A DNA stretch of 64,000 nucleotides from an uncultured Verrucomicrobiota bacterium (GTDB lineage Bacteria > Verrucomicrobiota > Kiritimatiellia > CAIKKV01 > CAITUY01). Below the pieces are notes generated by a model. That model was not told the origin of the DNA. It worked only from the letters and a program-made list of their open reading frames with translations, and ran no database searches. A program made the translations under genes and the position numbers. This document shows, in pieces, positions 41,965 to 64,000 of the stretch; position 1 is the stretch's first letter; each line of letters begins with the position of its first letter. The stretch lies in the NCBI GenBank assembly GCA_964508705.1, contig CAZDUS010000004.1, positions 2,762 through 66,761 of the forward strand. Direction: 5' to 3'.

Positions 41965-42513
41965 CTAAAGGGTAACAACCTTTGACACCCTAAAACTAGC
42001 CTTGAGGCTACCTGTCCCAGCCGTCTTCGCAGAATCAATCGTAAGCGTCTCTGCTATAAGCACTTGAGAAGAAGACTCTACCGCGTGTAGAAATCTAATG
42101 ATAGACTCCATCTCCGCTTCCACTTCTAAATCAACCTCGTATCTTTCACTTTCCTTATCAATAACAGGCTCGCGTGGCTTCGTTGCTGATAAGGTTACAC
42201 CTACCCCAGAGGCAATTTTTTCAATTTCAGACATCATGGCTGCGTTTTCTTCAGCGGAAGACCCCTTCTTCTTGATGATTTCACCATACTCCGTATACCC
42301 CGCAAGTACTGCGCTTTTCGCCGAGGGAGTCAAAATTTTCAGATTTCGCCGGACTTGCCCCTCTGCGCCTTCGATGTTCTCGGCAATTCTCTGAAAATTT
42401 CCTCGCACTGGGCCAAGACCAATGACCACACCGACGAGAATAGCAAGCGCTGCACCGCCTATAATCACCCACTCTTTCCCGCTACTCGGCATCCATTTCG
42501 TCAGCAACTTCAT
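41965..42513 (-). CDS. PilO/GspM-like bitopic assembly-platform protein
   Basis: Single N-terminal TM segment (WVIIGGAALAILVGVVIGL), a coiled segment and an alpha/beta C-terminus. Its start overlaps the stop of the PilMN-like gene. Confidence 0.5.
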   Translation of the reverse strand: MKLLTKWMPSSGKEWVIIGGAALAILVGVVIGLGPVRGNFQRIAENIEGAEGQVRRNLKILTPSAKSAVLAGYTEYGEIIKKKGSSAEENAAMMSEIEKIASGVGVTLSATKPREPVIDKESERYEVDLEVEAEMESIIRFLHAVESSSQVLIAETLTIDSAKTAGTGSLKASFRVSKVVTL

Positions 42514-43952
42514 TTGCTCTTTCCTTCAATATCAGCAACCACCTCAAATTCCGTCTTTTCCTTGCCTGTTGAGGTCCGCGTACTCTTGACATTCATAAAA
42601 AGAGGAGCTTTCTCTAACGCATCCACTAATTTCAAAATATCGCCCACGGTCTCCGCAACACCACGGCAAACCATCTGTTTATTTCTGCCAATCTCAATTG
42701 AAGTAAAGCTAACTTGATCGCTCGCGACCTGATGCAATTCAGTAAGGCATCGGGCCAAAAGCATCCGATGCTCAAGTCTAGCGGCCACCAATCCCAATTT
42801 CTTTTGTTTGGACTCCACTTCGCCTGCCAATGTCTCGGTTTCTGAAATAATCTGATTTAATGCAACCAAATAGGCGTCTCGGCGACTATATCGACTCCCA
42901 ATCCACATTGATAATAAAGCAAGAATCAACATTACGAGAACAGCACTTAACGTCAAACGACTTGCCTTAAGCGCAACAGCTTTACGAAGGCGCATCGACT
43001 CTGGCATCAGATTGATCTGTAGACCGCTATGCGCCATGGCAGCACCTAACAAGCCGGACACTGACATCTCGTTCAAACGTGAGTCATCCGGCATCATGTC
43101 CACCTTGGCCACCCCTGCCAAAGGCGTTACAGTCATGGTTAGCCCCTCCTGCAACCGACTCCCTAACCTGGCGATTTTCCCCGCAGGCCCCAGAAGGACT
43201 AGCCGTTCAACACTCCCTCCAACATTTTCATTCCTGTAGGTTTCCAAAGCGCGCACAACCTCTTGCAGGAGATCACTTTCGGCCTTTTCTCCATTAACCG
43301 ATAGTTCTTTCAAACCAATCGGCACACTTCGACTAAACAAGGGCAATCCACGCTGAGCCACCAATAAATCAGTGTATGAGGAATCAACATCCAGATAAAC
43401 GATTTGCTCGGGGTACCCCAAACTCATTCCGCTTCCTTCCCCTTCCACGGCGCTTAACCATCCATCCGTGGTCACTGTCACGCGCTCAACCGACAATCCG
43501 GAATCCTCAATGCATCTCAACCTCTGCCTAACTGTCCCCGTCTGGGCAATTACCAGGAATACACGGGTATAGCCCTGCTTGTCGGAATCCACTAAACGAT
43601 AATCAAAAACAATCTCCTCGCGCGAATATGGAGTTTGACGGGCAATCTGGAGGTCGATCATATCTGAAATTTCAGAAAGATCACCAGAGGGCAAATCAAA
43701 CAATCTCACGTTGACCGCCTGTCTCGGCAGACAGACAATAACTGGCAGCCCTTTTAAATCAGGCACTCCCATGGACTTCAAAAAATCAGGCCCATAGAGC
43801 GTTTCTACTTCGTCGGCTTTCCTGAGAACGACTTTTTTGATCACCGCCCCATGTGAACCATTGACCACATGGATAAGCTTAAACCAATCGCCCCCAATCT
43901 CAACGACCACAACGTCTCGCCCGATCAAAGATGTTTGGGTTTCAGTCTTCAT
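42510..43952 (-). CDS. PilM-PilN fusion (GspL-like) assembly-platform protein
   Basis: Actin-like cytoplasmic domain (VVVVEIGGDWFKLIHV..., ...VYLDVDSSYTDLLV...). Central TM segment LTLSAVLVMLILALLSMWIG. PilN-like periplasmic part. The start at 43952 is preferred and 44033 is possible. Confidence 0.6.
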   Translation of the reverse strand: MKTETQTSLIGRDVVVVEIGGDWFKLIHVVNGSHGAVIKKVVLRKADEVETLYGPDFLKSMGVPDLKGLPVIVCLPRQAVNVRLFDLPSGDLSEISDMIDLQIARQTPYSREEIVFDYRLVDSDKQGYTRVFLVIAQTGTVRQRLRCIEDSGLSVERVTVTTDGWLSAVEGEGSGMSLGYPEQIVYLDVDSSYTDLLVAQRGLPLFSRSVPIGLKELSVNGEKAESDLLQEVVRALETYRNENVGGSVERLVLLGPAGKIARLGSRLQEGLTMTVTPLAGVAKVDMMPDDSRLNEMSVSGLLGAAMAHSGLQINLMPESMRLRKAVALKASRLTLSAVLVMLILALLSMWIGSRYSRRDAYLVALNQIISETETLAGEVESKQKKLGLVAARLEHRMLLARCLTELHQVASDQVSFTSIEIGRNKQMVCRGVAETVGDILKLVDALEKAPLFMNVKSTRTSTGKEKTEFEVVADIEGKSK

Positions 43953-44982
43953 GCCAATACAAGAACCTCCGCGCTCTTCGATCCCACACAAAAGAAATTC
44001 CCACCTGACTGGCACCACGACCAGCCACCACATACCCTCTAAAACGATCCGATGTCACGGTAGCCAAGGAAGCCAGGCCACTGAAAGCACCTTGCTCGTC
44101 AGCCGGCAAATCCAGCCTCTCTCCCGTCTCAGCAAGAGCCCCCCCCCCAGACAATGTTCTGAAAATACCCCCTCTTTCCCTGAACTGCAATATCTTCCTG
44201 ATTACCCCCCCCCCGTTATACCCCTTTGCCGCGAATAACACCCTCAACACCTCTGGATCGGCAGTGTTGATATTTATCCGAGTCCCTCCATATACAGTAA
44301 TATAGGGGAGGATTCTATTAAAAGTGTCCCGCGACATACCTTCAATCCACAACAATTCATAAACCGAAAGAAAAGGCCCGTTTTTCAAATCTGGTCTTTT
44401 CCACGCCGATCGAGACATGGGTGTTGAGCCCTGCCCTTGGGGAGTTTGCACCCTGGAATTCACAATATCTTTCGCTATTTCTTTCGCACGTCCCTCCCCA
44501 ATTCCCCCCACCAACCGAAACAAGGAAGCCAGAACATCTTCCCTGGCGAAATTAATATCAATTCGCCCCCCTTCGTCGCAAAACCCGTAATTTGTCACCA
44601 TGGCGCCATCAGACCGTTTTACATGATAAAACGCGGTCCAAGCCACCCTCACCCCCGAAGACACATCATTAAATTCCTCCGGATCGCTTGCCCATCGCTC
44701 ACTTAAAGCCTCCCACCCATTGGTTTCTTGAATCAAGAGGGATAACCCGTGATTGACTCCCGCCAATGCTGCTTGCCGTGAACTTATCTGACCACTACAA
44801 CGACGAGCCACTTCGATTTGTCCCCCAACATAAGCCGCCACAGCCGCCGCCAACGCTGCCAAAAGAAACAGCGTCCACAGAACCACAATTAAAATCCCCC
44901 CTCTTTCGCCAGCACTGCTACACGCCGGAGAGCTGTTCTCAATGCAGGAGATAACCCTTCTCTTATTTCCGGGAACGCTCAT
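43942..44982 (-). CDS. gspK: GspK-like minor pseudopilin
   Basis: Hydrophobic N-terminus ILIVVLWTLFLLAALAAAVA. Its size and its position after the J-like gene fit GspK. Confidence 0.6.
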   Translation of the reverse strand: MSVPGNKRRVISCIENSSPACSSAGERGGILIVVLWTLFLLAALAAAVAAYVGGQIEVARRCSGQISSRQAALAGVNHGLSLLIQETNGWEALSERWASDPEEFNDVSSGVRVAWTAFYHVKRSDGAMVTNYGFCDEGGRIDINFAREDVLASLFRLVGGIGEGRAKEIAKDIVNSRVQTPQGQGSTPMSRSAWKRPDLKNGPFLSVYELLWIEGMSRDTFNRILPYITVYGGTRININTADPEVLRVLFAAKGYNGGGVIRKILQFRERGGIFRTLSGGGALAETGERLDLPADEQGAFSGLASLATVTSDRFRGYVVAGRGASQVGISFVWDRRARRFLYWHED

Positions 44983-45559
44983 CTTTTACAAGGTTCCTTC
45001 TCGGCAGGATTAGTGTCTGCTGAATGGCACAAGGTTTGCCGCCCTCTTGAAAACCAACTCCGATCTTAACAGCCACTGGCAAATTTGTCCGTCCCTCACC
45101 TTCCCACTGACGCCCCCACACGACAGCCCCCATCCCGTCTTCGCCCGCATCTCCATATAGGAACGAGATTTCGTCTATCCCTGACAACAACATCTCGTTA
45201 GCCACGGTTATGTTGCCTGCCTCGCTTAATACTCGCGTAATTCTTTTCATACACCCCTGGCCGACTTCATATCGGATAACCCCTGGCCAGAAATTTGAAT
45301 TTCCCTGATCAATAACCGACGGGATCTCAATCCACGAAGCAGAACCCATAAATGGTGTAGCCCGGCATAATGTCAGATTACTCAAATCTTTTCGCACCAT
45401 GGACGTTGCTAATCGTATGCTCGTCCTGGCTCCCGCGGCGTCTCTGGCGCGCTCCCACACGCGTATTCCCGCCGCAAAACCACCAACAATCACAATTGAA
45501 GCAACGACAACAATAGCCGTCACGATAAGCAACTCAAGGAGCGAAAAGCCTCTCTTCAT
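44963..45559 (-). CDS. GspJ-like minor pseudopilin
   Basis: MKRG/FSLLELLIVTAIVVV prepilin leader. The ATG at 45559 overlaps the upstream stop (ATGA). Confidence 0.6.
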   Translation of the reverse strand: MKRGFSLLELLIVTAIVVVASIVIVGGFAAGIRVWERARDAAGARTSIRLATSMVRKDLSNLTLCRATPFMGSASWIEIPSVIDQGNSNFWPGVIRYEVGQGCMKRITRVLSEAGNITVANEMLLSGIDEISFLYGDAGEDGMGAVVWGRQWEGEGRTNLPVAVKIGVGFQEGGKPCAIQQTLILPRRNLVKDERSRK

Positions 45560-45954
45560 TTCGTTCGCCTCACACTCAACCATTCAGTGGCAATACCGTA
45601 TTGAGTTACTCGCCCCATTGGAATGGCTTCCAGATAGAGTCGATGCAATGTCGCGTTTGAAGCAATAGTGACAGGATTGCTGTGAAATCTCCAAGCTATC
45701 GATCCCATGGACGACTCCCATACCCCGCTGTCCGCAACTGGGGGATCGCGCTGTGGCCATGTGGCTATTTCCAATTCGGCCAACTTATTGTCAAAAAAGT
45801 CCGAGACTTCCAACACTTCACGAGAAGAATCAATCGCATCAACAGCAACGCTGAATCCTCGCAGGACAGCCACCATCCCGGCCACCAGAATTACCGACGC
45901 CACGAGCACTTCAACTAGTGTGAACCCCTGCTTCCCGCTCATCCCCAACCTCAT
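45556..45954 (-). CDS. GspH/I-like minor pseudopilin
   Basis: ...GKQG/FTLVEVLVASVILVAG prepilin leader. The ATG at 45954 overlaps the gspG stop (ATGA). Confidence 0.6.
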   Translation of the reverse strand: MRLGMSGKQGFTLVEVLVASVILVAGMVAVLRGFSVAVDAIDSSREVLEVSDFFDNKLAELEIATWPQRDPPVADSGVWESSMGSIAWRFHSNPVTIASNATLHRLYLEAIPMGRVTQYGIATEWLSVRRTK

Positions 45955-46349
45955 TCCCAATTCTTTATGTCATCTTCTGTGCCGCTTTTCCCGTCCCTGC
46001 CAGTCGAAAACAAATCATAACTGGAAGGTCTATGAACCCCGGGACAACGATACTGATATTTTCGTCCCCATGGGTCCAAAGGCTTTCGCTCCAAGTATGG
46101 TCCCTTGCCTGACGTCGTCATCAACACATCAACCCCGACCTCCGTCGTTGGGTAAGCCCCGGTATCCAGTCGAAACAGCTTCAAGGCTGTGTCCAAGCTA
46201 CTCAAATCACCCTGAGCAATCTTGTCCTTTGCTTCATCAGAACGACCAATCAGGCTTGGCGTAACCATAGCCGCCAATGCGGCAATAATAATTACAACAA
46301 TCATCAACTCGATCAGTGTAAATCCCCGACAAAGCTTCCGAGTCTTCAT
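45951..46349 (-). CDS. gspG: Type II secretion major pseudopilin GspG (copy 2)
   Basis: CRG/FTLIELMIVVIIIAALA leader, DPWGRKYQY and GRDGKSGTEDDIKNW motifs. Confidence 0.9.
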   Translation of the reverse strand: MKTRKLCRGFTLIELMIVVIIIAALAAMVTPSLIGRSDEAKDKIAQGDLSSLDTALKLFRLDTGAYPTTEVGVDVLMTTSGKGPYLERKPLDPWGRKYQYRCPGVHRPSSYDLFSTGRDGKSGTEDDIKNWE

Positions 46350-46388
46350 ATTAGCCCCACTATTATGTTTCTCATCATCTTTCGTCCC

Positions 46389-47603
46389 TCACCTTATCCC
46401 TTGCCCAATCTGAAAGATGGGCAAAAGCATGGCGAAGATAATGAATCCAACAACAATACCCACCGCAAGAATCAATATCGGTTCCAGCAATGTTGTGATT
46501 AACTTCAATCCCCTATCTAATTCCCTCTGATAAAAAGATGCGACCTCAATCAACACCTCGTCGAGTCGCCCACTTTCCTCACCCACTCTGACCATGCTCG
46601 TAACAAAGGCCGGCATCCCGGACCATCGCTTAAGCCCGCTAGCAACAGTGGCGCCTTGTCGAACGGTCTCCACAGCCACGGTCAATATCCCTGTTCGCAG
46701 TCGTCGATTCGTCAGTGTGTGCCCGCCAAGAGTCAGGGCTCTCTCAATAGGTATGCCTGCACGCACGAGCAAGGCCAATGTCCTGGCGAATCTGACAATA
46801 TCTGTGTCCAAGGCAAACTTTCCTAACAGCGGCAACCTCAACACCCAACCATCCACCGCTAATCGTCCCTTTGGTGTCCGCAAGAACCTCGCAAACAATA
46901 AAGCCGCCATTCCGCCCCCAACCACCATCCACACCCAATAGTCCGCAAAGAATCCACTGACCGTCATGACAATGCGCGTAGGCAACGGCAACACACGCCC
47001 CATACCTTCAAACAACCCCATTATCCGCGGGAGAAAAAACGTTAGAATGATGAAAACACTCGCCACACCAACAGCCATCACGAACGCAGGATAAGCCAGC
47101 GCGGACAGCACCTTGCCTCGCAATTCATCATCACTCTCGCGAGCCTCTGAAAGGCGCATGAGTACTTCATCAAGAACTCCCGCCGATTCACCAGACTTAA
47201 CCATGTTGACATATAATTCCGGGAATAGGCGCGGATAACGGACCAAGGCTTCAGAAAACATTTTTCCATCGCGAACGCTTCCTGTGAGCTCTCCAATGAC
47301 ATCGCGAAAAGCAAGGCTTTCGGTCTGCTCCTGAATGGTCGTCAATGCTCGCAAAATTGGCACCCCAGCTCGCAACAATCCGGCCATTTGCCGAGTAAAC
47401 ACGGTTACTTCTCCAGAAGTCACTCGCATCCTTCGCGGCTCGGTCACCTCTCGCGCTGGTTGTTCGTCCGCCTCTTCAATCCAGATCGGTATGCATCCCA
47501 TCCCTTCAAGGCGCGCCACTGCCGCTGAATGATTATCTGCGACAAGTTGACCCTTGACCGTTTTTACAGGCCCTTGCTTTGCTTTATAGGAAAACACCGG
47601 CAT
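46389..47603 (-). CDS. gspF: Type II secretion inner-membrane platform protein GspF
   Basis: Two T2SF repeats, three TM segments, 404 aa. Confidence 0.9.
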   Translation of the reverse strand: MPVFSYKAKQGPVKTVKGQLVADNHSAAVARLEGMGCIPIWIEEADEQPAREVTEPRRMRVTSGEVTVFTRQMAGLLRAGVPILRALTTIQEQTESLAFRDVIGELTGSVRDGKMFSEALVRYPRLFPELYVNMVKSGESAGVLDEVLMRLSEARESDDELRGKVLSALAYPAFVMAVGVASVFIILTFFLPRIMGLFEGMGRVLPLPTRIVMTVSGFFADYWVWMVVGGGMAALLFARFLRTPKGRLAVDGWVLRLPLLGKFALDTDIVRFARTLALLVRAGIPIERALTLGGHTLTNRRLRTGILTVAVETVRQGATVASGLKRWSGMPAFVTSMVRVGEESGRLDEVLIEVASFYQRELDRGLKLITTLLEPILILAVGIVVGFIIFAMLLPIFQIGQGIR

Positions 47604-47621
47604 GAAAACCCTTCATTCCTT

Positions 47622-49286
47622 TCACGCGGTCTCAACCAGAGTCGTTCGCGTGTCAAACGTAACCCGTTCGACTTCCTCCACCGAGGTGACACCTTGGGCG
47701 ATTTTATCCCAACCATCATCAACCAATAACCTCATACCCTCGGCTACCGCATGTGCTCTAATTTCCGTCGCCGACGCCCTCTTCACTATTAAACTCTCAA
47801 CCGAAGAGGTCATGGTAAGTATTTCACAAATCGCCACTCGCCCCCGATACCCAGTATTGTTGCAATGACGACATCCCTTACCGCGACTGCACCGCCGTCC
47901 CTTATGCTCTGTCCACTCCCTGCAATGCTCGCATACAACGCGCACCAACCGCTGGGCCATAAACGCCCGGACTGTGGAAGTAATCAGATAGGGATCAACC
48001 CCCATGTCCAGTAGCCGGATGGCCGCGCTGGCTGCATCATTCGTATGGAGCGTACTAAACACAAGATGCCCAGTTAAAGCAGTCTGAAAGGTGATTTCCG
48101 CCGTCTCAGGATCACGAACCTCTCCAACCATCATGATATCCGGATCGTGCCTCAACATGCTCCTGAGTGCCCTCGCAAATGTTAACTCGATCCGAGGGTT
48201 GATCTGAGTTTGCAGAATACCCTTGAGCTCGTATTCAACTGGATCTTCGATCGTGATGATCTTCCGTTCGCGAGTGTTAAGCCGACTCAAACATGCATAT
48301 AATGTCGTGCTTTTGCCGCTTCCCGTTGGTCCTGTTACAAATACAATCCCGTGCGGAAGTTTGATGAGATCCGACAGGATTTCCAAGGGTCGCGGCGACA
48401 GCCCTAACTGTTCAAGACTGAACAGCATGACGGTGGGAAGAATACGAATGACAACATTTTCGCCATGCACTCCGGGAACCACCGAAACACGCAGGTCAAA
48501 CTGCTCCCTCCCAATGCTAACCCGCGCTCTCCCATCCTGCGGCAGCCGCCGCTCAACAATGTTCAAACCAGCCATCAGTTTAATCCGGGAAACAATAGCT
48601 GGATACAGCCCAGCCATTTGCCGCGACGCAGGGGTGTCATATAAAACACCATCGATCCTGCGGCGCACAACGATATCATCCCGATAGATCTCAAAGTGAA
48701 TATCCGTGGCCCGATCACCAATCGCTTGATGCAGCAATTGATTAACCAGCTTTATAACCGACGCATCTTCCTCTTTGTTTTCCAGATCATGTGACTCCAG
48801 CGCAGGGGTTGCGTCGCGCGCCTCCGGTTGATCCGCCAGAATCCGTTCAACTGTCTCGGCCCCTACCCCGTAATGAATCCTGATCGATTCTCTAACATCA
48901 TTAGCACACGCCAAAACCCGCTCAACGCGCAACCCTAAACTGCTTTCAATGTCTTCCACAGCGGCCATGTCGAAAGGGTTCGCAACCGCAACTGTAAGCA
49001 CTCCAAACGACAACCGAATAGGCATCACCTGGTAATGCGAAACAAATCGCGCCGACAAACTGGCAACGGCCGCCGCCTCAGGCTTCACGTCTTGAAGAGC
49101 AACAAATACAACCCCCTGCTGGGCTGCCACCACTTGCAACAACCGGTCTTCCGGGACCATCCTCTCTCGAATCAACGTCTTTACCAGCGACTCATTTCGT
49201 TCACGCGACAACTTAACCGCCCGTTCAAAAGCCGGACGAGTTAGCAACCGCTCTTCAACCAACATGTCTCCTAGTTGCGACGCCAT
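47622..49286 (-). CDS. gspE: Type II secretion ATPase GspE
   Basis: MshEN/T2SE N-terminal domain, Walker A GPTGSGKST, Asp and His boxes, and a tetracysteine CEHC...CRHC. ATG at 49286 is preferred (GGGGAG upstream). The longer track ORF would overlap the beta gene. Confidence 0.9.
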   Translation of the reverse strand: MASQLGDMLVEERLLTRPAFERAVKLSRERNESLVKTLIRERMVPEDRLLQVVAAQQGVVFVALQDVKPEAAAVASLSARFVSHYQVMPIRLSFGVLTVAVANPFDMAAVEDIESSLGLRVERVLACANDVRESIRIHYGVGAETVERILADQPEARDATPALESHDLENKEEDASVIKLVNQLLHQAIGDRATDIHFEIYRDDIVVRRRIDGVLYDTPASRQMAGLYPAIVSRIKLMAGLNIVERRLPQDGRARVSIGREQFDLRVSVVPGVHGENVVIRILPTVMLFSLEQLGLSPRPLEILSDLIKLPHGIVFVTGPTGSGKSTTLYACLSRLNTRERKIITIEDPVEYELKGILQTQINPRIELTFARALRSMLRHDPDIMMVGEVRDPETAEITFQTALTGHLVFSTLHTNDAASAAIRLLDMGVDPYLITSTVRAFMAQRLVRVVCEHCREWTEHKGRRCSRGKGCRHCNNTGYRGRVAICEILTMTSSVESLIVKRASATEIRAHAVAEGMRLLVDDGWDKIAQGVTSVEEVERVTFDTRTTLVETA

Positions 49287-49297
49287 TCCTGCTCCCC

Positions 49298-50719
<1,422 letters not shown>

Positions 50720-50761: not shown

Positions 50762-51658
50762 TTATGCCACTTTACGCTTCTTCTTCCGGGATGAGAAGGA
50801 TTCCCTCATGCTTTTGTCCACCATTTCATGGGCGGCTCTGAAACACTGATGTTTGACCTTCTTGTGATCTTTCTCCAGTTTTTGTGAGCTCTCCTCCAGA
50901 TGCATTGCCCTGGCTGAGAATTCCGCCAATTTGCTATCTTCAAATACCTCATACAGCTTGGAGGCCACCCACACGCCGGCCAAATACTCCACCATATCCC
51001 TGTATGAAGATTCGACAATGACCTTACGTGCGTCGGCGATAAAACCGCCCCCTTTTACATGCTCCGAAATCGCTGTTTGCCCTCCCCGATCAAACAACTC
51101 CCCGCATGGCAAAATGGTTATCGTGTCAACCGTCTGCTGTGTAAATGAAAGCGGTCGAGGATGAACAATTATGACCTTACCAATATTGCCTTCCGCCACT
51201 TCCTTAACAAGATAGTCACGGATCTCGAGAGCCTGCTCAAGCCGGGTATCCGGCGTGATTCCAGGAAACGCCTTAAACTCACGCCCTGTCTCGGAAAGTT
51301 TTGATGATCCCTTCTCGCCAATGACAATCCATCTCACTTTCTCATTAGGCAGTTCGCCTTGTGCGTTATAACCCCCTTCGATTACCCCCGCATTCAGCCC
51401 GCCCATAAAACCAGAGTCTGATGTCACTAGCACTATTCCCACTGTATCCGTCGTACACCGCACCAGAGGAGCATCAACCTCCACCATATCCACTACCCTG
51501 AAGAAACCCGCAAACTCCTCCATGAAATCCGCAAAACGCTCTTTCTCTCGCTCCAGCATATGATACTGGGACGCTGCGATGTTTTTCAGGGTCTGAATTA
51601 GTTGCAGAAATTCCGAGTTGAAGCGCAGCTCTTTCCTGAGTTGACTCAACAACGGCAT
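50762..51658 (-). CDS. atpG: F-type ATPase gamma-like subunit
   Basis: N-terminal helix LRKELRFNSEFLQLIQTLKNIAASQ, a central Rossmann-like part and a C-terminal helix. 298 aa, positioned between b-delta and beta. Confidence 0.75.
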   Translation of the reverse strand: MPLLSQLRKELRFNSEFLQLIQTLKNIAASQYHMLEREKERFADFMEEFAGFFRVVDMVEVDAPLVRCTTDTVGIVLVTSDSGFMGGLNAGVIEGGYNAQGELPNEKVRWIVIGEKGSSKLSETGREFKAFPGITPDTRLEQALEIRDYLVKEVAEGNIGKVIIVHPRPLSFTQQTVDTITILPCGELFDRGGQTAISEHVKGGGFIADARKVIVESSYRDMVEYLAGVWVASKLYEVFEDSKLAEFSARAMHLEESSQKLEKDHKKVKHQCFRAAHEMVDKSMRESFSSRKKKRKVA

Positions 51659-51682: not shown

Positions 51683-52414
51683 CTAAATATGCTCGCTTTT
51701 CAACTGGTCGACCGCTTCGCGGAACCGGTTCGCCAAACTACCATCAATCTCAAGACTCCCGAGTTTGATTTTTATTCCAGCTATAAGTTCAGGAATAACA
51801 GTCTCGCGAACATCCAAATTGACATTAAATTTTGACACCACCAACGCCTTCAGCCTCTCTTTATGCGCCACATCCAACGGGCAACTACAGGCAATTTCAA
51901 TGGCATCGGCATCAACGGTAATACTACTTCCATCCATCTCATCAAGCGCGGCTATCAGTTCATCCAAAAAGGCATGATCGAGTTTTTGCCCCATTTCGGC
52001 ACTAAACACCATCTCATAGACTCGACCAACATCCTCCAGCACCTTGGCGGAAGCCTCGCGAGCCAATTCCTGTCGCATTTTTTCCTTATTACGCGTCGCA
52101 TCCTCCAATATGCGATCACGCGCCTTCTTGGCCTCTTCCATCAAAGCGTCCCGACTGCGAGCCATATCCTTCTCCATCGTTTCTCGCGTTTTGGTCAGCG
52201 TCTCCTGAACTTCAGCGCTTTTCCGCCGGAACTCCGTCTCGTTTTCTTCAATCCGCTTACGAACTTGCTCTTCTTTCTTGCCCAGCTCACCTTCGGCTTC
52301 GCGTAGCTTCGTCACTGCCTTCATGGTGTCACGCAATAGAATTTGCCTCAGTACGAACACCGCCACCACAAGGACCGCCACTTGAATAATTATCATGTAA
52401 ACCATGATTCCCAT
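51683..52414 (-). CDS. F-type ATPase subunit b fused to a delta/OSCP C-terminal-like domain
   Basis: One N-terminal TM segment and a long Glu/Lys/Arg-rich helix. The C-terminal end VIPELIAGIKIKLGSLEIDGSLANRF matches the delta signature (...LIGG..I..G....DGS...). ATG at 52414 with GGAGG upstream. Confidence 0.6.
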   Translation of the reverse strand: MGIMVYMIIIQVAVLVVAVFVLRQILLRDTMKAVTKLREAEGELGKKEEQVRKRIEENETEFRRKSAEVQETLTKTRETMEKDMARSRDALMEEAKKARDRILEDATRNKEKMRQELAREASAKVLEDVGRVYEMVFSAEMGQKLDHAFLDELIAALDEMDGSSITVDADAIEIACSCPLDVAHKERLKALVVSKFNVNLDVRETVIPELIAGIKIKLGSLEIDGSLANRFREAVDQLKSEHI

Positions 52415-52479
52415 ACCTACCTCCAACAAATATTCCCCGTTAATAAACTGTCTCTACCAACTCATTAATCCACGCTATT

Positions 52480-52692
52480 TTACCTGCCAAAGAGCTGAAA
52501 CAACACGAGCAACGCAATAACGGCTATCGACTCCGCAAACACCAAAGAAATGATCATAGCTTGCAAAATCTTGTTTGCGGCAGACGGATTTCTCCCCAAC
52601 GCCCGGATACTCGCATATCCAATTGACGCAATGACAGCCGACGGCCCAAGTACAGTCAAAAAGATAACCAGAAATATAATAAAATTCCTCAT
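52480..52692 (-). CDS. atpE: F-type ATPase c subunit (70 aa helical hairpin)
   Basis: Two TM helices, a GRNP polar loop and a membrane carboxylate E54 in FAESIAV. Confidence 0.75.
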   Translation of the reverse strand: MRNFIIFLVIFLTVLGPSAVIASIGYASIRALGRNPSAANKILQAMIISLVFAESIAVIALLVLFQLFGR

Positions 52693-52709: not shown

Positions 52710-53003
52710 CTACGCTTCTGATTCCTCGGATTCTTTACGCCTTCGGACCTTGCCGCCCTCCTGTTCGAGCAAAACCACACAAGCCGCTCCAATAAATCTC
52801 ATCATTCCCCTCTTAATCGGGATGCGGATATCCCAGTCAATGACAATCTCCCCTTCCTTAAGCAGGCTAATCACAGGCGCATGATACGCCATCAGCTCAA
52901 ATTCACCGGTATCCCCTGGAAAAAACACATTCCTAACTTTGCCATCATACACAACTTTCTTTGGATTCAAAATTTTAAGCGAAAATGTTGCCACGGCTAC
53001 CAC
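52710..53003 (-). CDS. atpC: F-type ATPase epsilon subunit, beta-sandwich domain only
   Basis: FSLKILNPKKVVYDGKVRNVFFPGDTGEFELMAYHAPVISLLKEGEI aligns by eye to the epsilon N-terminal domain. No C-terminal helical hairpin. GTG start. Confidence 0.7.
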   Translation of the reverse strand: MVAVATFSLKILNPKKVVYDGKVRNVFFPGDTGEFELMAYHAPVISLLKEGEIVIDWDIRIPIKRGMMRFIGAACVVLLEQEGGKVRRRKESEESEA

Positions 53004-53016
53004 CCTTCGTCACCAC

Positions 53017-54501
53017 CTAACCTGCCAACCCCTTTTCGAAAAAAGCTTTCAATGCGTCCGATAGCCTGCGCTCCATCGCGGAATTTAGCGACTTCGACTC
53101 TTCAATATCCTTCAGCAACGCCGTATCGTGGGTTTTTGAAAATCCTCCGATATTTAGTTGGAATGCCTTGAGTTCCGCCGCATCCAAATCATCCAGAAGC
53201 CCTGTTTTCAAGGCATACAGGAGCAACACTTCTTCAGCAAGTTCAACAGGCTTATATTGCGCCTGTTGCATGACGCCAACCAATGCCTGTCCGCGTTTCA
53301 TCACCTGCTCGGCTTCCTTTGACAACCCGGACTGCAACTTGCTGAGCCGGGCGACTTCCACATATTGCAAATAGTCCCTGCGCAGAGATCCGCTTAACGC
53401 CCTTAATATGGGAAGTTGGGAACGACCACCCACAATTGAAATCGATAAATTGAAGTCCACCGCCGGACGCATCCCCTCGCCAAACAACGATGAGTTCATA
53501 TAGACAATACCGTCACAAATCGAAATGAGATTGGATGGAATATATCCCGTTAAATCCCCCTGCAACGTATCCGCGATCCCCAGAAACGTCATCGAGCCGC
53601 CCCCAGCCTCATTGTTCAGACGTCCAGCACGCTCCATCAATTGGGTTTGCACATAAAAAATATCCCCAGGATATGCCTCCCTGCCAGGCGGACGCTCCAA
53701 CAGCAATGATAACTGTCGGTAAGCCCATGCATGCTTAGTTAGATCGTCAAAAACCACCAAAACATCCCTTCCCTTTTTCATGAAATACTCGCCAATTGTC
53801 GCGGCGGAAAATGGCACAATATATTGCTCTCCTGCCGTGGCGCTATCCGTAGCGGCAACAATTCCAGTATACGTCAGAGCGCCTCTCTCGGCCAAAACCG
53901 CTATCACTTTTTCAAGCGCCACCACCGCCTTGCCCACACAACAGTACAAACAAACAACATTACGCCCCTTCTGGCTTAAAATCGCATCCACAGCCAGCGT
54001 CGTCTTGCCTGTCATGCGATCACCCATGATCAACTGACGCTGCCCTTTTCCAAGTGGCACCAGCGCATCCAGCACCTTGGTGCCTGAATACAAAAACCCA
54101 TCGACTGGCGCGCGCTCAGTAATAGGCGCCGAGGCGGCAAATACCGGCTTAATCATGTCAGATTGAATATCCCCTTTCCCGTCACACGGAACACCCAAAG
54201 CATCCACCATGCGCCCAATAAACCCTTCGCCAACAGGAATCGTAAACGGCTCGCTCGTCCCCGATACCATCTGACCCAACCTCACTTTGGAATCATCCCC
54301 CAAAAGCAAAGCCAAAACATCTTCCTCATTAAATCCCATGATAATCCCGCGGTTCCCCTCGCCAAAATCCACCAATTGCCCATTCAGACAGGAAGGCAGA
54401 CCGGTAACCCGGACAATCATTTTCTTAATGTCCTTGATTGTCCCTTTTTCGGTAATCTTGATCTTAAACGGGGCCACGGCTATACGAGGCGAGTTGCTCA
54501 T
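53017..54501 (-). CDS. atpA: F-type ATPase alpha-like subunit, paralogue 2 (Arg finger replaced)
   Basis: P-loop GDRMTGKTT and DDLTKHAWAYRQLSLLLERPPGREAYPGDIFY. SISIVGG stands where alpha subunits have SVSRVG. ATG at 54501 with AGGAGG upstream, lying inside the 3-prime end of paralogue 1. Confidence 0.9.
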   Translation of the reverse strand: MSNSPRIAVAPFKIKITEKGTIKDIKKMIVRVTGLPSCLNGQLVDFGEGNRGIIMGFNEEDVLALLLGDDSKVRLGQMVSGTSEPFTIPVGEGFIGRMVDALGVPCDGKGDIQSDMIKPVFAASAPITERAPVDGFLYSGTKVLDALVPLGKGQRQLIMGDRMTGKTTLAVDAILSQKGRNVVCLYCCVGKAVVALEKVIAVLAERGALTYTGIVAATDSATAGEQYIVPFSAATIGEYFMKKGRDVLVVFDDLTKHAWAYRQLSLLLERPPGREAYPGDIFYVQTQLMERAGRLNNEAGGGSMTFLGIADTLQGDLTGYIPSNLISICDGIVYMNSSLFGEGMRPAVDFNLSISIVGGRSQLPILRALSGSLRRDYLQYVEVARLSKLQSGLSKEAEQVMKRGQALVGVMQQAQYKPVELAEEVLLLYALKTGLLDDLDAAELKAFQLNIGGFSKTHDTALLKDIEESKSLNSAMERRLSDALKAFFEKGLAG

Positions 54502-55927
54502 GGAGTCCCTCCTTGATTTCAGCAGTCAAATCTTTCTTCTCAACCAATGCGGCCATCAACTCCGGCCTTTCCCGATGGACCTTCTCTATCAATCCTCTCA
54601 TATACGCGACCACCTGATCAGGCATCAGGTGTTCCATAAATCCGTTTGCCAACCCATACAGGACAACAATCTGGTCCTCAACTGCAACCGGCGAATCCTT
54701 ATCCTGCTTTAAAATCTCAGCTACCACGCGACCTTTCCGAAGACGCTTTTCCACCGCATCCGACACTCCCGCCTTGATACGCGTCAGCTTCTCCAACTCC
54801 TTAAACTGGATGTATTCCAGTCGCAAAATCCCAGCCAGTTTACGCATCGCAGGCCACTGCACTTTACTGCCAATACGAGAAACGGATAAGCCTATATCAA
54901 TAGCCGGCTTGAATCCCTCCGTGAATAACGGAGTACTCACATAAAGCTGCCCGTCCGTCATGGAAATAATATTCGTTGGAATATACCCTGTCACGTCCCC
55001 CTGCACTGTTTCCACAATCGGGAAAAACGTCATGGAGCCGGAGCCTCTTTCCGGATTTAACTTGCCGGCACGCTCAACAAGCTGGGAATGCAGGTAAAAA
55101 ATATCTCCCGGATACGCATCACGCCCCGGCGAGCGCTCCAGCAACAAGGACATTTGACGATACACCCAAGCATGCTTCGTAAGATCATCAAATACCACAA
55201 ACACATCCCGCCCCTTGACGTTCATGAAATACTCGCCAATACTGGCAGCCACATAGGGCGCCAGATATTGCTGCCCCACCGATGATGCCGCCGTGGCCGC
55301 AACAATCACAGCATAATCCATGGCGCCCCGCTCACGAAACAAATCCATCACGCGGTTCAGGGATGCCTCTGTCTTGCCTATGCTGCAATAGATGCAAATC
55401 ACATTCTTCCCCTTCTGGTTCAGAATGGTATCCGTGGCTATCGTCGTCTTCCCCGTAACACGATCGCCAAGGATTAACTGTCGTTGCCCTTTACCTACGG
55501 GGTTCATCATGTCGAGAATCTTAACCCCCGTCTCCAATGACTCTTTCAACGGAGTTCGCTCCAATACGCCGGGCGACATGCCGAATATAGGATAACGGCT
55601 TTCCGCCTTGATTGGGGCCCCTCCATCCATCGGCTCAGCCAACCCATTCACCACTCGGCCAAGGAATCCTTCCCCGACCGGCACCGTGCATGTCTCAATC
55701 GTGGAATGAAGCCTGTCGCCGGGTTTTAATTTCGCACCCTGTTTTACAATCATGGCTAACTCATAGCCACCATCAAAGCCCACGATAACACCCGTACTAC
55801 CACCGTCAAAATGCACCAATTGGCCATTCATGCAATTGGTCAGGCCTGTGATATGAGCAATGTCCTGCTTGATTTCAGCAACCAACCCATATTCCTTCAC
55901 CTGAAGCGGACTTATCTTTAAAGCCAT
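54464..55927 (-). CDS. atpA: F-type ATPase alpha-like subunit, paralogue 1
   Basis: P-loop GDRVTGKTT and DDLTKHAWVYRQMSLLLERSPGRDAYPGDIFY. SVSRIGS retains the Arg. Confidence 0.9.
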   Translation of the reverse strand: MALKISPLQVKEYGLVAEIKQDIAHITGLTNCMNGQLVHFDGGSTGVIVGFDGGYELAMIVKQGAKLKPGDRLHSTIETCTVPVGEGFLGRVVNGLAEPMDGGAPIKAESRYPIFGMSPGVLERTPLKESLETGVKILDMMNPVGKGQRQLILGDRVTGKTTIATDTILNQKGKNVICIYCSIGKTEASLNRVMDLFRERGAMDYAVIVAATAASSVGQQYLAPYVAASIGEYFMNVKGRDVFVVFDDLTKHAWVYRQMSLLLERSPGRDAYPGDIFYLHSQLVERAGKLNPERGSGSMTFFPIVETVQGDVTGYIPTNIISMTDGQLYVSTPLFTEGFKPAIDIGLSVSRIGSKVQWPAMRKLAGILRLEYIQFKELEKLTRIKAGVSDAVEKRLRKGRVVAEILKQDKDSPVAVEDQIVVLYGLANGFMEHLMPDQVVAYMRGLIEKVHRERPELMAALVEKKDLTAEIKEGLHEQLASYSRGPV

Positions 55928-56001: not shown

Positions 56002-57360
56002 TCACTCGCTTTTAGTCGTCTCGACTGGGCTTGATTTCTCCGCCTTGCCCTTGCCAAACCATCGCAGATAGAACATCAAGCTGACCACTGCAAGAAATCC
56101 AAGAATAATGTAGATAATCATCCAAGTCGTCTGACGGCTCGGCGATTTAACATTCAGGATCGGCGCTCCAAAGATATCCTGCGGCTTTTCACGCGGCTGA
56201 AACAACTCTTCCAGTCGAATTAAACGGGATTCAATACCCTTCAACGCTTCCGTCTTTCGGCGGACGGATGCAACATACTCCTCATTGACTACATCAGGAA
56301 CCTTTTCCGCCTTAACCGCTATCAGCTCCTTAATAACCAGCTCAATATCATGCACCACAGATGTATAAGCTTCTGTCGTCTTGGTAAGCTCGCTTAATTC
56401 CTTCGCCCTGGCCTCCAACTTGAGAATCCACTCATCAATCCCCCCCCAGGGATTGATCAGCTTCACGTCAAATACCTTGGATTCCTGCGGCGCCAGATCA
56501 ATCGTATCCGAAAACGCATAACAGACATTCTTAACGCTATCGAACCCGATTTGAAGCCCACCCGCGTCGATAACATCGGTCGGCTTAACCTCGATGGGGA
56601 AATCCCTTCTCAAGGGAATTGTCCTTTTTTCAGTTGGCGAGGGATTGGTCACCTTAATATGGACAATCACCACATTTCCCGTGGAGCCTTCCACCCCGTT
56701 TGACGCTGGCGGCAATACCCGTGATGCGCCTAGCAGCTTCCCTGGGTCTTTCCCTGCGGCAATCACCAGGTTTTCCATCATGCCTATATCACGTCGAATC
56801 CGCGTCAAGGCTTCCATGTTGGATTCATAAGCGCGAATATGCTCGATGGGCTTGACCACCCCTACAACATAGGCATTCTGACGCTCCTTAACGGCCTTCA
56901 TCCCTTCGGTCAAAACCCCATTCAACTGTTCCGCCGTATCGCCCTGCGCTGTCCCTTTCAAAGCCGCCATCAATACGGAAACATGTTGCGCCATCTCATC
57001 CAGAACTGATTCAGGAACAACCCAAATATCCCTGACTTTCACCTCAAACGTGCGAGTTTGCCCAGGATCAAGTTCAATAACTTTGTGGACATAATAGGTC
57101 TTGGCGGCAATGTCATACGCTATGTCCAGCCCAGCGGCATCAATCACGTCAGCCGGAGTCGCCGGTGCCGGCAGGAAAGACTTAACCGTCACCGATTGCT
57201 TTTCTATTTTTGAAGGATTAATCGCCCTTATCTTTACTGCCAACGTGTCAGCCTGCGATATCCCTCCCGTCACACCAGCAAGAATCCAAACCAAAAGCAA
57301 GGCAACCCGCAGGTTATTAGCCGGTCTTCCTTGTTTCATGTCATTTCTATTCCCGGCCAT
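56002..57360 (-). CDS. Signal-peptide protein with two tandem homologous modules and a C-terminal TM anchor
   Basis: Signal LRVALLLVWILAGVTGGISQA. Repeated block NPS..EK.......P....P.DVIDA.GL.I..D......Y.....I.L.P.....F.VK....W occurs twice. C-terminal TM segment WMIIYIILGFLAVVSLMFYL. ATG at 57360 with GGGGGA upstream. Confidence 0.6.
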   Translation of the reverse strand: MAGNRNDMKQGRPANNLRVALLLVWILAGVTGGISQADTLAVKIRAINPSKIEKQSVTVKSFLPAPATPADVIDAAGLDIAYDIAAKTYYVHKVIELDPGQTRTFEVKVRDIWVVPESVLDEMAQHVSVLMAALKGTAQGDTAEQLNGVLTEGMKAVKERQNAYVVGVVKPIEHIRAYESNMEALTRIRRDIGMMENLVIAAGKDPGKLLGASRVLPPASNGVEGSTGNVVIVHIKVTNPSPTEKRTIPLRRDFPIEVKPTDVIDAGGLQIGFDSVKNVCYAFSDTIDLAPQESKVFDVKLINPWGGIDEWILKLEARAKELSELTKTTEAYTSVVHDIELVIKELIAVKAEKVPDVVNEEYVASVRRKTEALKGIESRLIRLEELFQPREKPQDIFGAPILNVKSPSRQTTWMIIYIILGFLAVVSLMFYLRWFGKGKAEKSSPVETTKSE

Positions 57361-57427
57361 TGGATTCCCCCTTTCAAAATCGCACGTAAGCTTCAACTCA
57401 TACACAATCAACGGTAATGCATGCTTC

Positions 57428-59601: not shown

Positions 59602-60291
59602 TTATTTTGCAAATTTGTAACCAACCCCATGAACAGTCAAAATATGTTTTGGCTTGTGTGCATCCTTCTCGATCTTAGTCCGTAACATCGCCACAAAGGT
59701 ATCCAATGACCGTTGCGTTCCATAATACTCCATTCCCCATACATCCCTCATCAATACCTCCCGGGAAAGGGACACCCCTTCATTGGCCGCCAGGCAGGCC
59801 AGCAAATCAAATTCCGTCCGGGTCAGCGTGACTTCCTTCCCTTTGCGAACCACCGTCCTGGCCGCAGTATCAAGAATACATTCGCCAAAGTGATACTGCT
59901 TCGTTCCAATGGATGGCTTTTCGGCTCTGGCCAGAACCACTTTCACCCTAGCCAGCAACTCCTTGATACTGAATGGCTTAGTCACATAATCATCAGCACC
60001 CGCATCAAATCCAGCCAGCTTGTCCGTCTCCTCCTTGCGGGCCGTCAACATGATTACCGGCATGGTTAAACGCTTGTTCCTTATCGCCCGACAAATGTCA
60101 TAACCATTCATATCAGGAAGCATGATATCCAGGATCAACAAATCCGGATTGCGTTCGATCGCAATTTTTATCGCTTCCGCACCCATTTCCGCCGTCAACA
60201 CCCGGTAGCCAGCCACAGTTAGATTCTCATCCAATCCCAGCATCAGCGATTCGTCGTCTTCCACAACCAAAATGGTTTTTTGCTTATTCAT
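59602..60291 (-). CDS. OmpR-family response regulator
   Basis: Receiver domain (ILVVEDDE...DLLILDIMLPDMNG) and a winged-helix output domain (...LTRTEFDLLACLA...HGVGYKF). Confidence 0.9.
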   Translation of the reverse strand: MNKQKTILVVEDDESLMLGLDENLTVAGYRVLTAEMGAEAIKIAIERNPDLLILDIMLPDMNGYDICRAIRNKRLTMPVIMLTARKEETDKLAGFDAGADDYVTKPFSIKELLARVKVVLARAEKPSIGTKQYHFGECILDTAARTVVRKGKEVTLTRTEFDLLACLAANEGVSLSREVLMRDVWGMEYYGTQRSLDTFVAMLRTKIEKDAHKPKHILTVHGVGYKFAK

Positions 60292-62513
60292 TCACCCTCC
60301 TGACTAGCCCTTCCGGCCGGAAGAATTACCTTAAACGTACTTCCCTCGCCAACTCCACTCACAATCTCAAGCCGCCCCTTATGCGCCTGAACGACATGTC
60401 TACACAAGGCTAACCCAAGTCCTATCCCGTGCGCGTTGGCTTCCGCCGCTTTTCGTCCCCTGGTATACGGACGCACAATACGTCTGACATCATCCTTGCT
60501 CATCCCAACCCCATGATCCCTGATGGCCACTTCAACATTAACCCTGGTCCCTCTCCCTCGAAACCACCACGACTGCGTCAAACCATGCCCATAACCAACC
60601 ACACCAGCTGGATGCACATAGCGTCGCACATCGACTTCAATCACATGGGCATGCCCCGAATATTTTACGGCATTGTCCAAGAGATTAAATACGACTTGCT
60701 CAATGGCGCCCGCATCGAGCAAAACCGGCCCTAATTCAGGCTCAACACGCAATTGAATAACCCAGACGGGCTTCGCTTCTTTCTGATCAATAATTCCGAC
60801 ACCCTCATTGCCTCCGTCCATCTTCCCTGTCGGCAATCGAACAACACTCGCGCCAATACCTGTCGCAAATGTCTCAACGGTTTCCTGAACCACTCCGCCA
60901 AGATCACCCTCGGTGAATCGGTATCGCAGCATCCCTTCCCCATATCTGATAAAATATAGCGCGCGATCCGTCAGTCGGCTAAGCCTGTCGCTTTCCTTGA
61001 GAATGGCACCCAGAAACTTTTTTCGCTTCGCCTCATCCTGAACCCTTTCAAGGTACAAGCTTTCCGCCAACATGCGCATTGACGAAAGCGGCGTGCGAAG
61101 ATCATGGGAAACGGCCGCCGCAAAATCACTATGCTCACGGGCCCTGTGTATCTCCCACGCCGCCTCGCGCCACATCAACCATCCGCCGACAATCACCCCA
61201 ATCATAAGCAACGCCCCCGCCAACCCATACAATCGCTTTTGGAAAGCGGCATTTGCGGCGAACGATCGCGGATCAGCCGGCATGGCCGTAATCACAAATC
61301 GATCCAACGGAGGCGCCAATCTTCGCTCAGCCAAGGTTAACCGGTTTGAACTCGAATGGCCGACGGACTCTTGCACACCACAGCTTACCCGAACCCCCGC
61401 CTTTCGTCCTTCCGCTTGCGCCAGGGCAATCACCTTCTCCGACAACGCCTGTCGTCTAAACTGCACCACGGCCCACACAGCCCCGGACACATTCCTGTCC
61501 GGAATCGTCACAAGATAATCATTCGTTCCGAATCGCAACCATTGCCAACCGTCATCAACCAGACCACGGGAAATGCCTCCAAAATCGCGCTCTATCCTGT
61601 CTCGATCAGATTTAACAAGTCGCTGGGCTCGAACACACTCCTGCCATTGAATATCAGACGCCATCCCTTCGCGATCCCGTTCTTCCATCCTCGTTGCCAG
61701 CAATGCCCGCTGGGTTGACGGCAGAAAATCATACCTCTCCAACACCCGCGTCCTTATCTCCCTCTGCATCGACGCTTCGGCGGTCTTGTTGCCGGTTACA
61801 GCATATATGTCCGAAATTTCTGCTAACCCAATAAGATCAAGATGAAATCCCTCCTCGGGATCGCGAAGAGGCACCGATATCAAACCGTATCGTTTTGAGT
61901 TGCTCTCAGCGATCTCAACACACGCATGGAGGCTTTCGATCACGTTTTCCCACATCTTCGCCTCGCGATATCCCTGTGCAAGCCTCAACAAGGCCATTGC
62001 CCTGACAACCGGATCCAAACCTGGAACATCCAACAATCGTCGATAGACCGCAATGGTGGCCTCGGCGTTTGTCAGTGAATGCGTCTGTTGACCGGCCTGC
62101 CGCAGCGCAGTCAGACCAGCCTGATCGCTCGAATCCATCGCCCAAAAGTCACCGGCTCGATTAGTTGCCATCACCGGATAGAGCAACGCCCCATCCCTCT
62201 GCGCCACAAATACTTCCCCCACCCATTCATGCCTGGCTTTAATCTCCGCGACGCTCAAGGTTGCCTGGAAAAAATTTGACCGTGGCACAAGTCTCGGAAG
62301 CAATCGCGTCCCCATCTGCTTCCGCAAGGCATCAAGATTGGAAACCCATTCCACAACTACAGCGTCTAGCGCCCTGTCGGCATCCCGCGCCATCCGTTCC
62401 CGAAGGACAATCTGCCAACTCCCAAGCACTCGCCCCGCCAAGAACGATAAGGTTGCCGATGGCCCGACAATCAGGACAAGCACAAGGAAAACCAGTTTTA
62501 GCTCTCGACGCAT
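60288..62513 (-). CDS. Sensor histidine kinase with a large N-terminal sensor region
   Basis: H-box AAVSHDLRTPL, N-box VVFNLLDNAVKYS, G-boxes DHGVGM and GIGLGL. The stop overlaps the response regulator start (ATGA). Confidence 0.85.
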   Translation of the reverse strand: MRRELKLVFLVLVLIVGPSATLSFLAGRVLGSWQIVLRERMARDADRALDAVVVEWVSNLDALRKQMGTRLLPRLVPRSNFFQATLSVAEIKARHEWVGEVFVAQRDGALLYPVMATNRAGDFWAMDSSDQAGLTALRQAGQQTHSLTNAEATIAVYRRLLDVPGLDPVVRAMALLRLAQGYREAKMWENVIESLHACVEIAESNSKRYGLISVPLRDPEEGFHLDLIGLAEISDIYAVTGNKTAEASMQREIRTRVLERYDFLPSTQRALLATRMEERDREGMASDIQWQECVRAQRLVKSDRDRIERDFGGISRGLVDDGWQWLRFGTNDYLVTIPDRNVSGAVWAVVQFRRQALSEKVIALAQAEGRKAGVRVSCGVQESVGHSSSNRLTLAERRLAPPLDRFVITAMPADPRSFAANAAFQKRLYGLAGALLMIGVIVGGWLMWREAAWEIHRAREHSDFAAAVSHDLRTPLSSMRMLAESLYLERVQDEAKRKKFLGAILKESDRLSRLTDRALYFIRYGEGMLRYRFTEGDLGGVVQETVETFATGIGASVVRLPTGKMDGGNEGVGIIDQKEAKPVWVIQLRVEPELGPVLLDAGAIEQVVFNLLDNAVKYSGHAHVIEVDVRRYVHPAGVVGYGHGLTQSWWFRGRGTRVNVEVAIRDHGVGMSKDDVRRIVRPYTRGRKAAEANAHGIGLGLALCRHVVQAHKGRLEIVSGVGEGSTFKVILPAGRASQEGE

Positions 62514-63731: not shown

Positions 63732-64000
63732 TTAAGGTGTCATGTCGGTTATTGTACCAAGGCTCGTATTGGCGGCGTCCTTGACGGGCTTCTTCATATC
63801 CCTGCTACGCTCGAAAAATTTATCCCCCGTCACAACCCTGGGCGTAAGAAGAACTATGATTTCAGCATTCTCCGACTTAACATCATCAGATCTGAAAAGT
63901 GCGCCGAGAAGTGGGATGCTCCCCAGCACAGGAATCTGAGTTCTTTGCTTGGATTGAGTTTCTTCAATCATCCCTGCAATAATAATGGTCACTCCGTCTT
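63732..64000 (-). CDS. Secretin (GspD/PilQ family), C-terminal end only; the gene continues beyond the right edge
   Basis: The frame is open to position 64000. Conserved secretin C-terminal motif QIPVLGSIPLLGALFRSDDVKSENAEIIVLLTPRVV. Confidence 0.8.
   Translation of the reverse strand, partial: DGVTIIIAGMIEETQSKQRTQIPVLGSIPLLGALFRSDDVKSENAEIIVLLTPRVVTGDKFFERSRDMKKPVKDAANTSLGTITDMTP

Follow-up and report, generated by a model that had tools for sequence, protein, structure and literature searches.

Tandem alpha subunit genes, the second without the arginine finger, in a pilus-linked F-type-like ATPase operon

In canonical F1Fo, one alpha gene fills all three alpha positions of the head. What kind of head is then built by an operon that encodes two alpha subunits, of which only one has the arginine finger? 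This question is raised by a 64,000-nucleotide stretch of contig CAZDUS010000004.1 from an uncultured Verrucomicrobiota bacterium. The whole stretch is referred to as the window, and its positions are used for numbering throughout. On the minus strand, it carries two alpha-type genes, here named alpha1 and alpha2, and an earlier note on this DNA had claimed that the second one encodes isoleucine in place of the catalytic arginine. The loss of the arginine in alpha2 is real, lies at the right column and is conserved, and it is no accident of one genome. Most likely, alpha2 is a functional, selectively maintained alpha paralogue belonging to a non-respiratory F-type-like ATPase whose genes share an operon with those of a type II secretion system (T2SS)/type IV pilus apparatus.

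The alpha1 gene (55927..54464, minus strand) encodes an alpha-type subunit of 487 amino acids with the Walker A sequence GDRVTGKTT and the finger motif SVSR351IG. It is followed head to tail by alpha2 (54501..53017, minus strand), an alpha-type subunit of 494 amino acids with the Walker A sequence GDRMTGKTT and Ile356 at the finger column. Both proteins matched the Pfam domains ATP-synt_ab_N (PF02874), ATP-synt_ab (PF00006) and ATP-synt_ab_C (PF00306), and F1 alpha chains were their best PDB matches in phmmer searches (E = 1.5e-141 for alpha1 and 6e-130 for alpha2). Open reading frames (ORFs), domains and PDB matches thus agree on two full-length alpha-type genes, as the earlier note had described them. 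The full-length identity between the two is 45%. Alpha2 has intact Walker A and Walker B motifs, and AlphaFold modelled it with confidence as an alpha fold, the predicted template modelling score (pTM) being 0.88. At the Gln position of the 'IGQK' segment, alpha1 and alpha2 have Lys and not Glu, which is a trait of alpha-type, non-catalytic subunits. The three-domain fold, Walker A and the finger position are shared with canonical AtpA. The motifs SVSRIG, SISIVGG, ICIYC, VCLYCC and DDLTKHAW were found where they had been claimed, but DDLTKHAW was rejected as a derived marker of the family. It is not diagnostic, since it is also present in the canonical outgroup alphas (L077-L083), the locus search having fished with that very peptide.

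The phmmer alignments to solved alpha chains contained no gaps across the finger region and for tens of residues on each side. In these alignments, 'glsvsrigskvq' of alpha1 and 'nlsisivggrsq' of alpha2 both lie under 'glsvsrvggaaq' of the solved chains. Therefore, Arg351 of alpha1 and Ile356 of alpha2 share the finger column, which is that of bovine alpha-Arg373. Their codons read as previously stated, namely, CGT at 54877-54875 for Arg351 and ATT at 53436-53434 for Ile356 (both minus strand). The arginine of GGRSQ in alpha2, Arg360, is located four residues downstream of this column. A realignment placing Arg360 on the finger column was rejected because of the ungapped stretches on either side, and so the assignment of Ile356 to the arginine-finger position could not be escaped in this way.

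The substitution is conserved in orthologous operons and homologous proteins. In the 120 closest alpha2 homologues (59-100% identity), which are the best 120 matches of the protein search, the finger column was occupied by Ile in 113 cases, by Val in seven and by Arg in none. Among the 18 loci with the window's gene order, the first alpha always reads SVSR and the second one always S(I/V). Counted over the loci, I or V was present in 18 of 18 alpha2 genes, while Arg was found in 16 of 16 partner alpha1 genes of the Lentisphaerae type and in all 57 single-copy alphas of the family. A finger-less alpha without an Arg-bearing alpha did not occur in any locus surveyed. To put this in a wider frame, 150 alpha-like representatives were sampled, one per 50%-identity cluster, from ~15 billion public proteins. 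SVSR was kept in ~133 of the 137 representatives that aligned at the finger, the exceptions including alpha2's own representative. Three other representatives without the finger Arg (P0368, P0472 and P0495) showed the motifs STSTVGGR, STNVDGNH and PINAISSK.

The finger is not the only altered position. While alpha1 is like a normal alpha at every catalytic-interface residue examined, alpha2 of the Lentisphaerae type carries the changes A219D, H285Q, S286T, P308G, T329C and V354L at otherwise invariant alpha sites. T329C and V354L fall in the finger-carrying ISITDGQ...SVSR segment, which we take to be the alpha side of the catalytic interface.

The gene is nevertheless neither a pseudogene nor an artefact and is under clear purifying selection. 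Against the closest orthologues of alpha2, the proportion of non-synonymous differences (pN) was 0.19 and that of synonymous differences (pS) 0.74-0.82, with the synonymous sites being saturated. The evolutionary rate is close to that of gamma and the secretion ATPase and roughly double that of alpha1. Intact alpha2 (~490 amino acids) was found in more than 150 homologues from independent assemblies, and its sequence was detected in 20 lake DNA runs with 57-100% of the sampled words present. Contigs of freshwater metatranscriptomes (at least 99% identity) matched four stretches of alpha2 and also alpha1, beta, b/delta and the upstream gene. The unexpressed pseudogene, which the earlier note had left as a way out, is contradicted by the difference between pN and pS and by the matching metatranscriptome contigs.

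The junction between the two genes (54464..54514, minus strand) comprises a 38-nt overlap (54464-54501) and the Shine-Dalgarno sequence AAGGAGG at 54508-54514, which is embedded in the alpha1 codons for IKEGL. The ATG of alpha2 at 54501 follows after a 6-nt spacer and lies 38 nt within alpha1. This start behind an internal AGGAGG had been described in the earlier note, and overlap and internal Shine-Dalgarno sequence were kept in 13 of 15 related loci. Given these two features, alpha1 and alpha2 are not only co-encoded but probably co-translated.

Both alphas are shortened at the N-terminus. They have 13-19 residues before the beta-barrel versus 27-30 in canonical controls, and the delta/OSCP-binding N-terminal amphipathic helix of the EISxIIK type is absent from both. 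The same was observed throughout the family (L001-L076): its alphas begin 10-18 residues later than ordinary alphas, yet the cluster encodes a b/delta fusion. The Lentisphaerae-type alpha2 has a conserved, slightly longer N-terminus of its own (MSSxxxSxIPLFKIK).

The genes are ordered up469 - alpha1 - alpha2 - epsilon - c - b/delta - gamma - beta, followed by secretion and pilus genes, all on the minus strand. Epsilon (52710..53003) is truncated and consists of the beta-sandwich domain only, without the C-terminal helices. The c subunit (52480..52692) has 70 amino acids, an RNP loop and the ring glutamate (FAESIAV). It is followed by the b/delta (OSCP) fusion of the peripheral stalk (51683..52429) with one N-terminal transmembrane (TM) helix, by gamma (50762..51658), assigned from the domain search, and by beta (49298..50713) with all catalytic motifs present. 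Directly after beta, the T2SS/type IV pilus genes (42510..49286) begin with a GspE/PilB-type ATPase gene, whose ATG at 49286 is located 11 nt after the beta stop. A GspF/PilC-type platform protein, a GspG-like major pseudopilin, minor pseudopilins, a GspK-like protein, a PilM-PilN fusion and PilO/GspM follow. Beta, gamma, epsilon, c and b/delta occur once per cluster, and alpha alone is duplicated.

An ATP synthase, which the operon had been taken for, is not what these genes describe. The a-subunit signature [STAGN]x[STAG][LIVMF]RLx[SAGV]N[LIVMT] (PROSITE-like) was found in none of 76 family loci and nowhere in the 64-kb window, whereas it was detected in six of seven control loci of ordinary ATP synthases. 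There is no unassigned gap in the operon, which runs on into the secretion and pilus genes. The c-ring Glu, present in the window, has given way to Q, M, S, A or F in ~13 of 70 family loci, two tandem-alpha loci among them, and the c-ring of the clusters L001-L076 is probably not used for ion translocation. The catalytic motifs of beta, on the other hand, are intact throughout the family. Taken together with the missing delta-binding helix of the family alphas, these features give the complex the look of a working ATP hydrolase and not of a chemiosmotic ATP synthase. What is encoded here is an F-type-like ATPase without an a subunit and linked to a pilus apparatus.

Several details of beta were recorded besides. 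The DELSEED loop of the family beta reads DELS(K/R)(A/S)DR and is hence partly basic. Walker A of the window's beta ends in GKS, as it does in four other tandem-locus betas, in the Omnitrophota-type tandem betas and in most single-copy betas; GKT is kept in ten of fifteen Lentisphaerae-type betas. A search for compensating beta changes in tandem-alpha loci yielded only N229D and T310S, neither of which is common to the Omnitrophota-type tandem loci, and such changes were therefore dismissed.

The conserved first gene of the cluster, up469 (56002..57411, minus strand), was called as 445 amino acids from a later ATG. According to its AlphaFold model (pLDDT 88), the protein has a signal/TM helix, two repeats of a beta-sandwich plus a three-helix bundle, and a C-terminal TM helix. 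It had no Pfam match and, despite the confident model, no PDB fold match at E <= 0.001. In many Omnitrophota loci, the ORF matching up469 is a giant one of 2100-2900 amino acids, and L001 and L003 each encode, just upstream, a giant Laminin_G_3 protein of at least 3200 amino acids as a separate ORF. Further upstream in the window, an OmpR-type response regulator, a histidine kinase and a tetratricopeptide repeat (TPR) protein are encoded on the minus strand (59602-62513 and 63732-63992), and a putative C-terminal secretin end was judged by eye at the window edge. The ATPase cluster of L085 is likewise flanked by a response regulator, a histidine kinase and a Pfam-confirmed secretin. Promoter and terminator scans gave matches no more frequently than in shuffled sequence. 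The long ORFs are mostly on the minus strand, including all annotated ones between 42.5 and 64 kb, and the plus-strand GC skew stays below zero (-0.05 to -0.31) in all 2-kb bins of 1-64000.

The origin of the pair was studied with neighbour-joining (NJ) trees only, on which the deep branching thus rests. The family alphas were set apart from ordinary ATP-synthase alphas with 100% bootstrap support, and both alpha1 and alpha2 fell inside this clade. It follows that the duplication occurred within this operon type, as the earlier note had proposed. Lentisphaerae-type alpha1 and alpha2 each formed a clade of their own with 100% support and were sisters in 0 of 100 and 0 of 60 bootstrap replicates. 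The duplication is therefore old, and a recent one inside the Lentisphaerae lineage was rejected.

A second finger-less group, with R replaced by I and rarely by T, was found in Omnitrophota-like contigs (L033 and L084-L086, along with ~35 proteins). The finger-less alpha of this type is the second of a tandem pair and always preceded by an Arg-bearing alpha, but the pair occupies the ancestral position between b/delta and gamma. It is also less derived: only R->I is common with the Lentisphaerae type, and the other invariant residues are kept. The two finger-less groups clustered together with only ~50% support. Some single loci are recorded here in their own right. L068, a 3.3-kb Omnitrophota contig, reads up469 - single alpha (Arg) - epsilon and so has the Lentisphaerae-like front position with only one copy. 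In the tree, the closest neighbour of the alpha1 clade is this L068 alpha, at 88% bootstrap. The metagenome-assembled genome CAYQXW01 contains two separate copies of the whole ATPase/T2SS cluster (L066 and L075), and on a long branch the alpha of L075 joins the finger-less Omnitrophota alphas even though it keeps the Arg. In L058 and L061, masked N runs gave rise to artefactual ORFs that looked like alpha-gamma fusions.

The ATPase as such is not new. In all classes of Omnitrophota, genes for a 'symbiotic' non-respiratory F-type ATPase have been described beside type-4a pilus clusters, and they were compared with the Type 2/3 F1-like ATPases of Mycoplasma (Seymour et al. 2023, Nat Microbiol, PMC10066038). 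These loci agree with the window in the set of genes, in the pilus/secretion genes beside it and in an alpha clade apart from the ordinary, respiratory alphas. About 60 loci of the Omnitrophota type, including Ca. Velamenicoccus archaeovorus LiM (L067), have homologues of every gene from up469 to PilM. They differ from the window in order and number, as their arrangement up469-eps-c-b/delta-alpha-gamma-beta-T2SS contains one alpha with an intact finger, whereas in the window two alphas stand at the operon front and the second one is finger-less. The hosts also differ, being Omnitrophota in that study, while the loci closest to the window are labelled Lentisphaerae, Victivallales, Kiritimatiellae or PVC. 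Neither Lentisphaerae nor Kiritimatiellae nor 'paralog' occurs in that article, and 'duplicat' refers to reads, assemblies and sequences there; 'arginine finger' was not among the terms searched (PMC10066038). The literature searched contained nothing relevant on atpA genes in tandem or on an alpha that lacks the finger by nature, and the occurrence in Lentisphaerae-like hosts was not found there either. What is known is the type IV pilus-linked F-type-like ATPase itself, from which the window departs by the duplicated alpha, the lost finger, the altered gene order and the host lineage.

The Type 2 (G1-ATPase of the gliding motor) and Type 3 (F1-like X0, MIB-MIP) systems of Mycoplasma are likewise F1-like heads in a non-synthase job (PMC3369863, PMC12994834). 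They resemble the window's system in their link to large surface proteins and in an alpha without the delta-binding N-terminal helix (PMC3369863, PMC12994834). However, the Mycoplasma clusters comprise seven genes, with one alpha-like gene, beta-, gamma- and epsilon-like genes, unrelated membrane proteins and no c, b or delta, whereas the window has c and b/delta. Concerning beta, the window's subunit is far closer to ordinary bacterial beta (509 bits) than to the Mycoplasma G1 beta (343 bits).

Duplication of a ring subunit, with one copy losing a catalytic element and the copies taking fixed non-equivalent positions, is familiar from delta/delta-prime of the clamp loader and from the paralogous proteolipid ring of the V-ATPase, although these belong to protein families different from that of alpha2. 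We know of no such case for the alpha3beta3 head of a rotary ATPase. To our knowledge, the three non-catalytic positions are taken by the same kind of subunit in every F-, V- and A-type head described so far, and whether three equivalent catalytic sites are needed has been examined solely in engineered mutants and hybrid complexes. Finger substitutions, too, are known to us only as engineered mutants; the one in alpha2 differs from these in being natural, conserved and paired with an intact paralogue. F1 with alanine at the finger still rotates, but 10^3-10^4-fold slower and with half the torque (review PMC5380711).

How could the two alphas then be used? We consider it somewhat more probable than its negation that a single hydrolytic head contains both alpha1 and alpha2 together with beta and is asymmetric, one or two of its catalytic interfaces being crippled, a reading that is drawn from sequence features. 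Since alpha2 keeps the complete alpha fold as well as Walker A and B, it could still fill an alpha position between two betas. Made together by coupled translation, alpha1 and alpha2 would join the one beta, gamma, epsilon and b/delta to give a mixed head of the composition alpha1(2)alpha2(1)beta3 or alpha1(1)alpha2(2)beta3. One or two beta sites would then face Ile in place of Arg, and one or two of the three interfaces would be expected to hydrolyse ATP about a thousand-fold slower or not at all. Such a motor would have lost its three-fold engine and would be asymmetric by construction, with a long dwell, an indexed position or a site that is permanently nucleotide-bound or empty. As the a subunit is missing and relatives often lack the c-ring carboxylate, the complex is probably an ATP-driven device for the pilus/surface-protein machinery and not a synthase. 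In a machine that moves pili or surface proteins, fast symmetric turnover is perhaps unneeded, and asymmetry may be tolerated or even useful.

Several points weigh against the asymmetric head. The presence of alpha1 and alpha2 in one complex and the stoichiometry of the ring are logical inferences. Arg360 is a conserved basic residue that lies one helical turn from Ile356 in the AlphaFold model and might partly reach the site. The conserved hydrophobic replacement (I, V and rarely T) could reflect a function beyond inactivation. A single origin of all finger-less alphas has no more than ~50% support in the NJ tree. Finally, the metatranscriptome contigs that make up the RNA evidence are of low depth, and DNA can be present in libraries of this kind.

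Four other explanations were weighed against the asymmetric head. That alpha2 is a decaying duplicate or an assembly artefact without function is refuted by the data. It does lack a residue regarded as essential, but the replacement residue is itself conserved, the gene is intact across independent assemblies with pN far below pS, and DNA runs and RNA contigs both contain it. A shifted finger, by contrast, would leave all three interfaces active: Arg360 would reach the catalytic site of beta, and the two alphas would differ for another purpose, e.g. contacts with the b/delta stalk or gamma. Residues 356-361 form a short helix in the AlphaFold model, so that positions 356 and 360 face the same way, and position +4 from the finger column is R or K in all alpha2 sequences. 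The conserved, slightly longer N-terminus of alpha2 would fit position-specific contacts. However, R or K is found at +4 equally in alpha1 and in all 57 single-copy alphas, next to a strictly kept finger Arg. It is therefore not a compensation specific to alpha2, and the finger is not dispensable where both occur. As Arg360 came to lie at the finger column in no alignment and further invariant residues on the face of the finger are gone from the Lentisphaerae-type alpha2, we regard a shifted finger as unlikely.

The remaining two explanations take alpha2 out of the mixed ring. In the one, alternative homotypic heads would be formed, either an active alpha1(3)beta3 or a nearly inactive, nucleotide-binding alpha2(3)beta3 with a parked, regulatory or structural role, at a ratio set by conditions. 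With 45% identity and separate clades of 100% support, self-recognition of the two alphas could have diverged, and a two-component system is encoded directly upstream. Joint expression is nevertheless indicated by the overlapping, apparently coupled genes in 13 of 15 loci, every other subunit is single-copy, and no sign of independent promoters was seen in a promoter scan that stayed at chance level. Such heads are thus quite improbable. In the other, alpha2 would act outside the hexamer as an alpha-shaped adaptor or inhibitor that binds, for example, the GspE/PilB-type ATPase, the stalk or a giant surface protein. This would suit its roughly doubled rate of evolution relative to alpha1, its loss of several invariant alpha residues and a machine with unexplained partners (up469 and the giant neighbouring ORFs of related loci). 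On the contrary, alpha2 is full length with all three domains, keeps Walker A and B and most residues conserved in ring-forming alphas, and is recognised as an alpha by both the match to solved alpha chains (E = 6e-130) and the model (pTM 0.88). A role outside the ring is therefore very unlikely.

A more specific form of the asymmetric head can be envisaged. Here, alpha2 would mark one unique interface of a head with fixed positions, and this head, no longer a three-fold engine, would work as an indexed or reciprocating actuator that mechanically drives or gates the type IV pilus/secretion platform and giant surface proteins via a c-ring that lacks an a subunit and can do without its carboxylate. 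This proposal is speculative and its probability is judged to be low. If true, it would represent a new use of an F-type motor, and nature would have tested there what number of catalytic sites is needed for rotation.

The tandem pair has consequences for annotation and for the study of rotary ATPases. The database name 'F0F1 ATP synthase subunit alpha' misleads annotators, as the complex is probably no ATP synthase. In at least two bacterial lineages, many genomes have kept an intact and a finger-less alpha together, which offers a natural hybrid F1 for testing the number of working sites. The pair is also a clear case of a duplicated ring subunit of which one copy has lost its catalytic element. 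It provides a handle on the unexplained F-type ATPase found alongside type IV pilus genes, in Omnitrophota and here also in Lentisphaerae-like bacteria.

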